From positions 1,772 to 65,771 of the forward strand of contig LSTF01000036.1 in NCBI GenBank assembly GCA_001644455.1: 64,000 nucleotides of DNA, given 5' to 3'. The stretch comes from Betaproteobacteria bacterium SCGC AG-212-J23 (GTDB taxonomy: Bacteria; Pseudomonadota; Gammaproteobacteria; Burkholderiales; SG8-39). Below the pieces are notes generated by a model. It was not told the origin of the DNA, ran no database searches, and was given only the letters and a program-made list of their open reading frames with translations. The first letter of the stretch is position 1, and each line of letters begins with the position of its first letter. Shown piece after piece: positions 23,437 to 27,134 of this stretch. A program made the position numbers and the translations under genes.

Positions 23437-24608
23437 TGCCGGTCGCGCTCGTCCTTGCCGGCGGCTTCCTGGTGCTCTTCGTGAGCGGCGGGGCTCGCTT
23501 CTCGATCGGCCTCACGCTCAAGCCGATGGTCGACGAGCTCGGCTGGCTGCGCTCCGACCTCGGCCTCGCGGTTGCCGTCTACATGGTGGTCTCCGCGTTC
23601 GCGACCTTCATGGCCGGCCGGATGGCCGACCGCCTCGGCGCCCGGGCGATTCTCGGAGCCGGAACGATCATCGGTGGCGTCGGCATCGGCCTGATGTGCT
23701 TCGTCAACGCACCATGGCAGGCGATGCTGCTTTACGGCGTGATCTTCGCGATCGGTAACGGTGCCGCATCGCTGACGACGGTCGGCGTGATGGTGACGCG
23801 CGCCGTACCGGGGAGAGCCGGGTTGGCGAATGCGTTCGTGATCTCCGGCCAGAGCCTCGGGCAGCTGGTGATGATCTCGATGCTCGCCGCGGTGCTCGCC
23901 GAGATCGGCTGGCGCTCGGTGTTCGTCTGGCTCGCGGTCGCGCACGCGATCCTCATCCCGACCATGCTGCTCACGCTGCCCGCCGGCGCAAAAGGGCAGG
24001 CCGCGCAGGCGCCGGCGGCCGGCGCGAACCTGCGCGAAGCGGCGAGGACGCCGCGCTTCTGGCTGCTGCTCGCCGTCTACGCGATCTGCGGCCTCGACGA
24101 TTTCTTCGTCGGCACGCACGTCGCGGCGTTCGCCCAGGATCGGGGCGCGACTGCGCTGATGGCGGGAAACCTGCTCGCGTTCATGGGCCTCACGGCGCTG
24201 GTCGGCGTGCTGGCGGGCGGCTGGCTGAGCGACCGCTCGGGACCGGTGCTCGCGACGGCAATCGCGTTCGGCGCCCGCATCGCGGTGTTCGGGCTGATCC
24301 TGCTCGATCAGTCGCCGCTGTCGGTCGCGATCTTCGCGCTCGTCTTCGGCTCTACCTTCATGGTGACGGCGCCGCTCACGATACTGTTCGTGCGCGAGGC
24401 GTTCGGCACGCGCCATCTCGGCGCGCTCACCGGCCTGATCACGATGGTGCACCAGATCTTCGGCGGCATCGGCGCCTACGGCGGGGCGCTGATCTTCGAC
24501 GCCACCGGGAGCTATGCCGCAGCGTTCGTCGTCGCGCTCGTCCTGACGGTGGTTGCTCTCGCCCTTACTTTGGCTTTGCCGCGCGCATCCGCTCGATCCA
24601 CGTCTTGA
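23436..24608 (+). CDS. MFS transporter
   Basis: 390 aa, about 12 TM helices. MFS loop motif GRMADRLGAR. Confidence 0.82.
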
Positions 24609-25134
24609 AGCCGGCGAGGAGCTCGTTCAGGAACTTGCGCGTAGTTTCGTCGGTGAGCTTGCCTTGCGCGTCGAACTTCGTCTGGGCAGTGCCGATGAAC
24701 ACCTCCGGCCGCGGCAGGACCAGGCCCCAGAGCTGGACGAGGACCTTGCGCACGTCGTACTGAACGCGAGCGCCGCCGAGCGGCCCCTGAGAAGCGGAGA
24801 AGACGGCGATGGGCTTGTTGTCGAAGGGCTGCTTGGGCATCTTCGACACCCAGTCGATCGCGTTCTTCAGCACCGGCGGCATCGAGAAGTTGTACTCCGG
24901 GGTGGCGATCAGCACGCCGTCCGCCGCGGCGATCTCGGCATAGAAGCGCTTCGCCGATTCGGGCACCCCGGCGTCGAACACGTCCTGGTTGTACATCGGG
25001 ATGTCGCCGATCGTCGCGATGCTGATGGTCATCCCCGCCGGCGCCATGTCCTTGCAGGCGCGCAGGGCCGCCATGCTGAACGAAGCCTTGCGCAGGCTGC
25101 CGCAGACGCCGAGTACCTTGAATTCTTCCGCCAT
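24565..25134 (-). CDS. NAD(P)H-dependent FMN reductase, ChrR/YieF-like (putative chromate/quinone reductase)
   Basis: 189 aa. LGVCGSLRKASFS and ATPEYNFSMPPVLKNAIDW closely parallel E. coli YieF as I remember it. Third gene after chrB and the DMT gene on the same strand. Confidence 0.82.
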   Translation of the reverse strand: MAEEFKVLGVCGSLRKASFSMAALRACKDMAPAGMTISIATIGDIPMYNQDVFDAGVPESAKRFYAEIAAADGVLIATPEYNFSMPPVLKNAIDWVSKMPKQPFDNKPIAVFSASQGPLGGARVQYDVRKVLVQLWGLVLPRPEVFIGTAQTKFDAQGKLTDETTRKFLNELLAGFKTWIERMRAAKPK

Positions 25135-25167
25135 GTATGCCCTCGCTCGAAAGGGCCGAAGTCTAGC

Positions 25168-26187
25168 CTAGTGCCGGTGCCGGTGGTGCAGGTCGGGGTG
25201 ATGGGAATGGCTGTGCGAAAGCGCGCCGTGCTGGTGCGGGTGGACGTGCGGCTCCGCCCCATCCCAGGCGAAAGCGTGCTCGTGGCGGTGGTGCTCGTCG
25301 TGCACATGCTCGTGCTCGTGCGTCATCGGGTCGTGGACGTGCGCATGCCCATGCCGCTCCGAAATATGCAGCCAGACGCCGAGCGCCATCAGCAGCGCCG
25401 CGGCCCAGAAGCTCCAATCGGGGATTTCAGGCCAAAGAAAGATGGCCAGCGCCGCCCCGAAGAAGGGAGCGACCGAGAAGTAGGCCGCGGTCCGCGCCGT
25501 GCCGAGATCGCGCAGCGCGACGATGAAGAGCGCCAGGCTCACGCCATAGCCGAAGAGCCCGACCACGCCCGCGGCGGCGATGGCGCCCAGGGAGGGAAGG
25601 GAAGCGCCCTGCGCCAGCGCAAAAACCAGGTTCGCCGATCCGGCAACGAGCCCCTTGATGCAGGCGAGGGTGGCGGCGTCCGCGCCCGACACGCGGCGGG
25701 TCAGGTTGTTGTCGAGCGCCCAAGCGAGGCAAGCCGCGGCGATCAGCATGACGCTGAAGTCGAGATGCGGTTTCCCCTCGAAAGACAGGAGCGCGCCGCC
25801 GGCGACGATCGCCGCCATTCCGGCGAACACGCGTCGATCGACGTTCTCGCGGAATGCGATCCAGGCGATCACCGCGGTGAACACCGCCTCCAGGTTGAGG
25901 AGCAGCGAAGCCGTCGCGCCATCGGTCCGCGCGAGGCCGAGCATCAGCAGCGCCGGGCCGGCAATACCGCCGGCGACAACGGCGGCGCCGAGCCACGGCA
26001 CATCGCCGCGGCTGATCGGCTTCAACCGCCCGCGCAGCCACGCGAGCAGGCCAAGGCCGGCGCCGAGATAGAGAAGGCCGGCGAGCAGGAGAGGGCTGGT
26101 GGACCCCAGAAGGAGCTTGGCGAGCGGCGTGCTCGCGCCGAACAGGGCTGCGGAGAGAAGGGCGAAGGCGATGGCGCGCCGGCGCAT
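25168..26187 (-). CDS. DMT/EamA-family transporter with histidine-rich C-terminal tail
   Basis: 339 aa, 10-TM EamA-type body. The last 65 residues contain 24 His by my count (HGHAHVHDPMTHEHEHVHDEHHRHEH...HSHSHHPDLHHRHRH). Confidence 0.82.
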   Translation of the reverse strand: MRRRAIAFALLSAALFGASTPLAKLLLGSTSPLLLAGLLYLGAGLGLLAWLRGRLKPISRGDVPWLGAAVVAGGIAGPALLMLGLARTDGATASLLLNLEAVFTAVIAWIAFRENVDRRVFAGMAAIVAGGALLSFEGKPHLDFSVMLIAAACLAWALDNNLTRRVSGADAATLACIKGLVAGSANLVFALAQGASLPSLGAIAAAGVVGLFGYGVSLALFIVALRDLGTARTAAYFSVAPFFGAALAIFLWPEIPDWSFWAAALLMALGVWLHISERHGHAHVHDPMTHEHEHVHDEHHRHEHAFAWDGAEPHVHPHQHGALSHSHSHHPDLHHRHRH

Positions 26188-26189
26188 GT

Positions 26190-27134
26190 TCAGTGACGGG
26201 AGCCGGTAAGACCGCCGTACAGGAGGTCCAGTACGCGCATCGCCTCGGCAAGCAGCGCATCGTCGCTGCGGGCCTTTTCACGCGCGCCCTTGAGCATGGT
26301 CTCGAGGCCCTTGGCGTCGGGCGCGGGGATGCCGCCGACATCGAGAAAATGCACCGCTGCACCGATGGCGGCGAGGCCGGCATCCTGCTCCAGGCCGAAG
26401 CTCGCGAGCAGCACCTCGAAGGTCACGCGATTCTTGACGTGGGTGAACTCGGCGCCGTCGAAGTCGTATCCCACGGCATCCTTCGGGCATTCGCTCGGCC
26501 GCGCGATCCAGGCGAACCGCGCGTCGCGATCGATGAAGCGCTTGATCAGCCAGGCGCTCGCCAGCCGGTCGACCCACGGCGTCTTGCGCGTCGCCCAGAT
26601 TCGCTTCTGATAGCGCCGCTGATCGAGCGACCGCATCCCGCGCTTGGAGAATCGCGGCTCGCCGCCGGCGAACATTCCCTGGTAGCCCGCCTTCAGCGCC
26701 GATAGGGCCGTCGCCGCCTGCACCTTCGCCTCCCCGGGGAAGAAGTCGATCTGCGCGAGGCGATCGTGCTGACGCTCGAGGCGCCGTAGCAGCGTCTGCC
26801 CGCGGCGCGCCCCGAGGCGAGGGAGCGAAGCCCTGGCGGCGGAAATCCTTTCCACCAGCGAACCGTACTCCGCGCTGCGGTCGAAGAGCCGCCGCAGGTC
26901 GGCGAGCTGGTCGGCGGTTCTCGGTTTCAGCTCGGCAGTCATGGCGAAACCGCCGTGCGAGCGGATGTCGTTCTCCATCTTCGCCAGGGCGGCGGTGTCC
27001 GCCGCGGCCGGCAGCACGTAGACGCCGTCGCGCAGGGCGCCGCATCCGGATTCGCGCAGGGCGCGCCAAAGGCGCATGCGCAGCGTGGAATTGCGCGTCG
27101 GCAGGCTCAGCACCAGTGTATTGAACGTTTCCAT
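26190..27134 (-). CDS. chrB: chromate resistance regulator ChrB-family protein
   Basis: 314 aa. LSLPTRNSTLRMRLWRALRESGCGALRDGVYVLP N-domain and WVDRLASAWLIKRFIDRDARF C-domain, typical of ChrB. Only a 2-nt gap to the downstream DMT gene. Confidence 0.8.
   Translation of the reverse strand: METFNTLVLSLPTRNSTLRMRLWRALRESGCGALRDGVYVLPAAADTAALAKMENDIRSHGGFAMTAELKPRTADQLADLRRLFDRSAEYGSLVERISAARASLPRLGARRGQTLLRRLERQHDRLAQIDFFPGEAKVQAATALSALKAGYQGMFAGGEPRFSKRGMRSLDQRRYQKRIWATRKTPWVDRLASAWLIKRFIDRDARFAWIARPSECPKDAVGYDFDGAEFTHVKNRVTFEVLLASFGLEQDAGLAAIGAAVHFLDVGGIPAPDAKGLETMLKGAREKARSDDALLAEAMRVLDLLYGGLTGSRH

Follow-up and report, generated by a model that had tools for sequence, protein, structure and literature searches.

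A CnrT-family transporter gene with a conserved histidine-rich domain follows chrB in a divergent chromate-resistance locus of an uncultured betaproteobacterium

Chromate resistance is usually described as efflux by ChrA together with damage control. The closest chr determinants to the one considered here are that of plasmid pMOL28, in which chrI-chrB1-chrA1-chrC-chrE-chrF1 is followed by the accessory genes chrO, chrN and chrP (the gene order varies between papers), and chrBACF of TnOtChr from Ochrobactrum tritici. On pMOL28 the chr cluster shares an island with cnrT, and this juxtaposition of cnr and chr genes has long been known. CnrT is described as a DMT-family (TC 2.A.7) inner-membrane exporter that moves Ni(II) out of the cytoplasm into the periplasm, from where CnrCBA handles it (PMC11647595, PMC6851896, PMC7019866). 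Here we describe a stretch of 64,000 nucleotides (nt) of contig LSTF01000036.1 from Betaproteobacteria bacterium SCGC AG-212-J23, hereafter called the window, in which a gene for a CnrT-family transporter stands on the minus strand between chrB and a gene for an NAD(P)H-dependent flavin mononucleotide (FMN) reductase.

An initial annotation of this DNA had described three minus-strand genes separated by gaps of 2 and 33 nt, namely a chrB, a gene for an EamA-type transporter with 10 transmembrane helices and a gene for a YieF/ChrR-like reductase. The open reading frames were found to lie exactly so, and all three family assignments were upheld by Pfam, AlphaFold2 and Protein Data Bank (PDB) matches. 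The first gene, chrB (26190..27134), encodes a chromate-responsive regulator of the ChrB family with 314 amino acids (aa), in which Pfam ChrB_C (6.2e-43) and ChrB_N (4.2e-6) were matched and which shares 44% identity across 308 aa with ChrB1 of pMOL28. It is followed by the cnrT-like gene (25168..26187) for a 339-aa DMT/EamA transporter of the CnrT family, matching Pfam EamA in two stretches (1e-27), and then by the gene for a 189-aa FMN reductase of the ChrR/YieF class (24565..25134; Pfam FMN_red, PF03358, 4.9e-39). At the first junction only two nt separate the stop codon of chrB from the start codon of the cnrT-like gene (TGA-AC-ATG), and the 33-nt spacer at the second contains a GAGGG ribosome-binding site. 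No convincing terminator was observed between the three genes, as the region 24300-27500 gave three weak terminator-like hits, which is close to the 1.6 expected from shuffles and no excess over them. Because of the short gaps and the lack of a convincing terminator, chrB, the cnrT-like gene and the chrR-like gene are likely to be co-transcribed. When the proteins were searched by sequence against the PDB, no match was obtained for ChrB or for the cnrT-like transporter. At the other end of the unit, the 3′ end of the reductase gene overlaps convergently by 44 nt (24565-24608) with that of a plus-strand gene for an MFS_4/oxalate-formate-type transporter (23436-24608), which leaves no room for a terminator between the two; the same overlap was seen in the related loci L009 and L010.

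It is close to certain from sequence comparison that the transporter is a new member of the known CnrT family. Over its residues 16-339 (324 residues) it was found to be 61% identical to CnrT of Cupriavidus metallidurans CH34 pMOL28 (E 3e-113), and all His blocks of CnrT were aligned with it in a direct pairwise comparison. The two proteins belong to the same length class, have the same 10-helix EamA architecture and share the His string HxHxHxHEPxxHxHxHxHDEHHxHEHxFxWDGxEPHxHxHxHxxxxHxHxHxPDxHHRHxH. An alignment-based AlphaFold2 model of the transporter had a mean predicted local distance difference test (pLDDT) score of 93.8 and a predicted template modelling (pTM) score of 0.89, with 10 transmembrane helices, and with Foldseek its membrane core was matched to the DMT structures 5Y78, 7B0K and 5I20 at E 4e-8 to 1e-6, the matches including triose-phosphate translocator (TPT), LicB, YddG and SLC35 types. 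Furthermore, E100, E114 and D159-N160-N161 were near-invariant and fall within the sequence range predicted as membrane helices. In a tblastn search against a plasmid collection 186 records were obtained, of which the named Cupriavidus copies are annotated as "nickel diffusion facilitator CnrT", and a complete HMMER search of 1.84 billion cluster representatives yielded 724 clusters at 50% identity with E<1e-30.

By homology, the substrate of the cnrT-like carrier is most probably Ni(II) and possibly Co(II) too. The initial annotation had suggested a carrier that handles a cation, which is supported by the relatedness to a described Ni(II) exporter; it had also seen in the carrier an undescribed part of chromate handling, and in this respect the transporter itself is not undescribed, because it is a homologue of CnrT. 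The genetic setting differs clearly from that of CnrT, whose gene comes after cnrA, whereas the window gene begins 2 nt after chrB and is followed by the FMN reductase gene. No homologue of an RND pump, membrane-fusion protein, outer-membrane factor, CnrH, CnrX, CDF, NicO or RcnR protein was found anywhere in the 64-kb window. The gene thus stands there without the cnrCBA RND pump and the CnrYXH sigma/anti-sigma system; linkage to cnrCBA and control by CnrYXH are a trait of the cnr operon, not of the protein family.

The most conspicuous part of the transporter is its C-terminal domain (residues 277-339, 25171..25359 on the minus strand), which is rich in His and is covered by no Pfam model. 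Its last 65 residues contain 24 His, exactly as counted in the initial annotation, versus only 2 in the first 274 residues. The initial annotation had also named the absence of this tail from all orthologs as grounds for abandoning its proposal; the domain instead proved invariant. At least 20 His within the last 75 residues were found in 120 of the 120 closest database homologues. Among 150 representatives of 50%-identity clusters, 107 carried at least 20 His in some 75-residue stretch. About 19 His, together with D297 and D332, were invariant in alignments of 62-63 sequences that share 38-76% identity with the window protein. AlphaFold2 predicted four beta-strands in this region, at 279-285, 288-294, 314-320 and 323-329, with a mean pLDDT of 78-91 per 10-residue block. 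A disordered low-complexity tail was considered and rejected, given the positional conservation of the His residues and the confident prediction of beta-strands. By the geometry of a beta-strand, the alternating H-x-H pattern would put rows of His on one face of the predicted strands. The domain is presumably cytoplasmic, because the N-terminus is basic (MRRR) and ten helices follow, and such a placement would fit the capture of cytoplasmic metal for export.

In joining a cytoplasmic His-rich segment to a membrane exporter, the transporter resembles NreB, RcnA and CDF exporters, and some CnrT-family genes adjoin RcnR and CDF or NicO genes, which is a further likeness. The folds of those exporters (MFS, NicO and CDF) are unrelated to the present one, however, and the His region of the CnrT family is a position-conserved domain with predicted beta-structure rather than a variable loop. 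Within the literature searched, the recognition of this region as a conserved domain that is predicted to fold appears to be new.

A metagenome scan was carried out with a 12-sequence family profile, and the 80 best loci (53-71% identical to the window protein) were taken; their neighbouring genes were called by tblastn, for which proteins of the window or of pMOL28 served as queries. For high-GC loci, predicted genes were filtered by GC content at the third codon position; some genes were missed in this way, such as RcnR in L004, so that counts of immediate neighbours are rough. ChrB, ChrA or DUF1259 was found near the cnrT-like gene in 13 of the 80 loci (11 of the 50 with at least 4 kb of flank) and any gene of the chr set in 16, as compared with an RND pump, the canonical cnrCBAT context, in 9, CDF in 2, RcnR in 1 and MerR in 2. 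An FMN reductase was present in four, all of which belong to the window's clade. When the family was arranged in a neighbour-joining tree, the chr-linked members were scattered through it and did not form a single clade. The layouts also differed: in L051 the cnrT-like gene is followed on the same strand, about 5 nt on, by chrA, a Pfam match confirming the chrA domain; L098 carries a chrBA operon that is transcribed divergently from the cnrT-like gene; in L042 chrN precedes the cnrT-like gene on the same strand; and in L036, L037, L080 and L097 the chr and cnrT-like genes are convergent. The chrB-a form of the chr-associated RNA motif occurs instead of chrB-b in L036 and L076, which suggests that the linkage extends beyond a single class of proteobacteria. 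This recurrent linkage gives comparative support to the functional tie between chr genes and the EamA carrier that the initial annotation had proposed.

Otherwise, the immediate neighbours of the family genes were very heterogeneous. A cnrT-like gene lies beside RcnR and CDF genes inside a Tn3 element in Burkholderia sp. SRS-W-2-2016 and beside a NicO-type transporter gene in Asticcacaulis; RND systems flank it in Ralstonia solanacearum, and ArsR-type regulators were also found among the neighbours in named genomes. All of these are cation-resistance contexts.

The window's own clade consists of uncultured soil Burkholderiales whose transporters are 70-100% identical. Within it the pair of cnrT-like and FMN_red genes is constant, and it is adjoined by a gene for an exported protein, cep, with its own chrB-b leader. 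The complete order chrB, cnrT-like gene and FMN_red gene was also found in L009, in L028 and, on short contigs, in L011. In L012-L014 a distant rhodanese-ChrB_C gene takes the place of chrB, and L015 showed no chrB in its 2.6 kb of upstream sequence. Part of the conservation within the clade is plain synteny, because flanking ABC-transporter genes are conserved too. As a separate observation, CDF-type cation efflux genes were present in or beside the chr clusters of L012 (2739-3776) and L104 (12671-12948), which makes a second case of cation exporters mixed with chromate genes in this lineage.

The reductase encoded downstream of the transporter was matched in the PDB to PA1204 (1RTT, 1.5e-52), the Gluconacetobacter chromate reductase (3S2Y, 3.7e-43) and Escherichia coli YieF (3SVL, 1.2e-41). 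It contains TPEYN...LKNAIDWVS, which matches the ChrR/YieF family signature reported by Ackerley et al. 2004. Like ChrR of Pseudomonas putida, YieF of E. coli and the chromate reductase of Gluconacetobacter hansenii, it belongs to the class of soluble NAD(P)H-dependent FMN reductases of Pfam FMN_red. By analogy with those enzymes, the window flavoenzyme can presumably reduce chromate or quinones and thereby limit redox cycling. The characterised ChrR/YieF enzymes are not known to be encoded within chr operons, whereas the window reductase gene sits in a chrB unit, and in the related locus L102 the reductase gene directly follows chrB.

The initial annotation had remarked that chrB is not followed by chrA, which it placed 4.5 kb away on the other strand. 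Both points hold locally, as chrA (31626-32801, plus strand) was found about 4.5 kb from chrB and the two genes do not stand one behind the other in one operon. However, chrA is the sixth gene of a plus-strand chr operon that starts only 165 bp from chrB, and it is therefore not detached but part of the divergent half of one chr locus. Its gene content marks the locus as a chromate-resistance determinant of the pMOL28 type, with its genes divided between two divergent units. The plus-strand operon begins with a gene for a lipoprotein of unknown family (27300..27866), which has an LAGC lipobox and no Pfam hit, whose ATG at 27300 is preceded by a GGAG ribosome-binding site, and which is syntenic in L001, L009, L028 and L087. 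It is followed by a gene for a fusion of ChrC and ChrE (27876..28829), in which an Fe/Mn superoxide dismutase (Sod_Fe_C, 1.8e-21) is joined to a rhodanese (Rhodanese, 4.3e-8; NCBIfam rhodan_ChrE, 1e-22). The fusion protein of 317 aa is 58% identical to ChrC and 38% identical to ChrE of pMOL28, which are encoded there by separate genes, and the same fusion was observed in L001, L009, L028, L087, L103 and L104.

The next gene (28826..29446) encodes the DUF1080/concanavalin-like exported protein named cep above; it gave a weak match to 3keto-disac_hyd (1.3e-5), and its start was set at a GTGA overlap with the upstream stop codon. A cep gene has been described in a Cupriavidus chr operon (PMC7060636). 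Further downstream are genes for a ChrP-like MFS transporter (29443..30603), 62% identical to its MFS counterpart in the chr cluster of pMOL28, and for a ChrN-like beta-propeller protein of the YncE type (30616..31629), which had Pfam and NCBIfam beta-propeller matches and was 26% identical to that of the pMOL28 YncE-family gene. The chromate efflux transporter gene chrA (31626..32801) was strongly supported (Chromate_transp, PF02417, 1.8e-78; TIGR00937, 1.5e-125; 69% identity to ChrA1), and the operon ends with the gene for a ChrO-like DUF1259 protein (32840..33763; PF07485, 2.7e-89; 33% identity to that of the pMOL28 DUF1259 gene). Homologues of ChrB, ChrA, ChrC, ChrE, the MFS protein ChrP, the DUF1259 protein ChrO and the YncE-type ChrN of pMOL28 are thus all present in the window. 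The locus differs from the chr determinants of pMOL28 and TnOtChr in the fusion of ChrC with ChrE, in having no detected chrI, and in that the only match to ChrF1 fell within the C-terminal part of chrB itself. It differs also in that chrB and chrA lie on opposite strands in divergent units, the structural operon has a chrB-b RNA leader, and the chrB unit carries a putative cation exporter and a flavin reductase.

The leader was identified in the 5′ untranslated region of the plus-strand operon (27220..27271) as the chrB-b RNA motif (Rfam RF03086), scoring 42.3 bits where the gathering threshold is 36.5. Compensatory changes were observed in both of its stems across related loci, the covarying copies coming from L001, L009, L012-L015, L024, L028, L035, L064, L080, L087 and L102-L104. 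Some loci carry two copies, one before the lipoprotein or superoxide dismutase gene and one before cep. The chrB-b motif has been proposed as a candidate chromate-related cis-regulator (PMC5737381). On the minus-strand side, a conserved 40-nt block, GTATCTTTnGTCACTTnnnTGTGATAnnTATAAC, lies directly upstream of chrB (27135..27174); within it, the sequence TATAAC precedes the ATG by about 7 nt, and an inverted repeat, TCAC-N8-GTGA, is present. The block is kept in the window, L009, L001, L028 and L087. Transcription of chrB1 and chrB2 of C. metallidurans was mapped to a start 0 bp upstream of the gene (PMC9045368), and by analogy the chrB mRNA of the window is probably leaderless. The block suggests a candidate leaderless promoter with an operator overlapping the promoter spacer, a proposal drawn entirely from conservation; a sigma-70 consensus scan of 24300-27500 found no promoter.

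Elsewhere in the window, a stretch of lower GC content was observed at about 46000-54100 (0.55-0.59 versus about 0.66, with a GC skew of up to 0.15). It ends at a tRNA-Asn gene (53990-54065, minus strand) next to a tyrosine integrase gene (52897-53964, plus strand), and most of its open reading frames gave no Pfam hit; it is probably an integrated genomic island or a prophage remnant. Just outside it, a gene for a eukaryotic-type (alpha) carbonic anhydrase was found (44468-45229, minus strand; Pfam 4e-47).

We propose that the minus-strand unit is one ChrB-controlled transcript that adds a cation exporter for Ni(II)/Co(II) and a flavin reductase to chromate efflux, and we give this proposal about an even chance of being correct. 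The plus-strand unit, comprising the chrB-b leader and the genes for the lipoprotein, the ChrC-ChrE fusion, cep, chrP, chrN, chrA and chrO, would provide the chromate efflux. The chrB, cnrT-like and chrR-like genes would be read as one transcript from the putative leaderless chrB promoter, so that upon sensing of chromate by ChrB all three proteins would rise together. The four-stranded His-rich beta module, lying in the cytoplasm, would capture divalent metal and pass the ions to the membrane pore for release to the periplasm, and the flavin reductase would add reduction of chromate or quinones to the efflux of chromate.

Several findings weigh against this proposal. The role in Ni(II) export has no local support, because the window has no cnrCBA, cnrYXH or other Ni/Co gene, and direct evidence on CnrT itself was sparse within the literature searched. 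In L001, L087, L103 and L104 a minus-strand cep gene intervenes between chrB and the cnrT-like gene, and co-transcription of the two is therefore not general. The transporter gene is dispensable within the clade, because it is absent from L102, where the FMN reductase gene comes 35 nt after chrB (6001-7531), and because it is truncated to 296 aa in another relative (protein P0381). Behind this truncated copy lies, on the opposite strand, a gene for 434 aa, which may be an insertion. In the loci scanned, no cnrT-like gene had a chrB-a or chrB-b motif immediately before it on the same strand, and no chr genes were found within 6 kb of the cnrT-like gene in four cultured Burkholderiaceae replicons. 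Moreover, a chr-linkage of 16-22% overstates the family-wide rate, because the sample comprised the 80 loci that matched the window protein best, and resistance genes cluster in islands anyway.

The last point leads to the reading that the genes are co-located without a shared function, the transporter being a plain Ni/Co exporter with no chromate role that came to lie after chrB by an accident of rearrangement. Nickel or cobalt and chromate do occur together, for example in ultramafic soils and plating waste, so that their determinants gather in the same islands, and on pMOL28 cnrYXHCBAT and the chr cluster lie side by side as separate operons. The fluid gene order around the cnrT-like gene in the window's clade, including its loss or truncation in relatives, points the same way, and the syntenic ABC-transporter genes mean that the conservation partly reflects relatedness. 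However, the tight same-strand junctions seen here, 2 nt with chrB in the window and about 5 nt with chrA in a distant lineage, are unlike those of juxtaposed independent operons; the window holds no cation-sensing regulator or other Ni/Co gene, and chr linkage reappears in different parts of the tree, in at least four architectures. We consider an accidental placement unlikely. The carrier might instead, like most DMT/EamA proteins, transport organic molecules, for example thiols, amino acids or metal chelators; the His domain would then be a cytoplasmic metal sensor that gates transport and would not form part of the route of the substrate. This would agree with the similarity of the membrane core to the organic-solute carriers of the TPT, LicB, YddG and SLC35 types, and also with the very heterogeneous immediate neighbours across the family. 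The literature treats CnrT as a Ni(II) exporter, however, and the near-invariant E100, E114 and D159-N160-N161 are compatible with an ion path; neither point is decisive. We consider an organic substrate quite unlikely.

The initial annotation had named Cr(III) produced by the neighbouring reductase as an example of a cation to be exported. The ChrR-like enzyme would then reduce cytoplasmic Cr(VI), and the resulting Cr(III), or a complex of it, would leave through the CnrT-like carrier. The transporter and reductase genes, 33 nt apart, do remain adjacent down to about 70% identity, even in L015, which has no nearby chrB or chrA, and members of the CnrT family occur together with chr clusters in many lineages. 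Moreover, no bacterial Cr(III) exporter is known to have been described. No direct support for Cr(III) export was obtained, however: the linkage with the reductase is restricted to the window's clade and was seen at none of the distant chr-linked loci; L102 retains chrB and the reductase without the transporter; and the closest characterised relative handles Ni(II). In addition, ligand exchange of Cr(III) is very slow, which by general coordination chemistry fits a histidine relay poorly. Reduction followed by export is distinctly improbable. A wider claim seems very doubtful to us, namely that chr-embedded CnrT-family carriers are a dedicated part of chromate defence, ridding the cytoplasm of Cr(III), or of a complex of it, that has formed there, in the window through the putatively co-transcribed ChrR-type reductase; if true, it would represent the first bacterial route of Cr(III) efflux and would change the view of the CnrT family.

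All components of the locus belong to known families. What appears to be new within the literature searched is the presence of a cnrT-type gene inside chrB or chrA operons, recurring across the family, since no account of chr clusters with DMT/EamA or cnrT-type genes was found there. In the same literature CnrT has been treated only as part of the cnr system, whereas it belongs to a large family, and its poly-histidine beta domain, as predicted here, is an attractive target for structural and metal-binding study. The usual account of chromate resistance by ChrA efflux leaves unaddressed the fate of cations that accumulate or are mobilised under chromate stress. The occurrence of a CnrT-type exporter in chrB or chrA operons of several lineages offers a hypothesis that is cheap to examine, by asking whether chromate induces the exporter and which metal it would remove.

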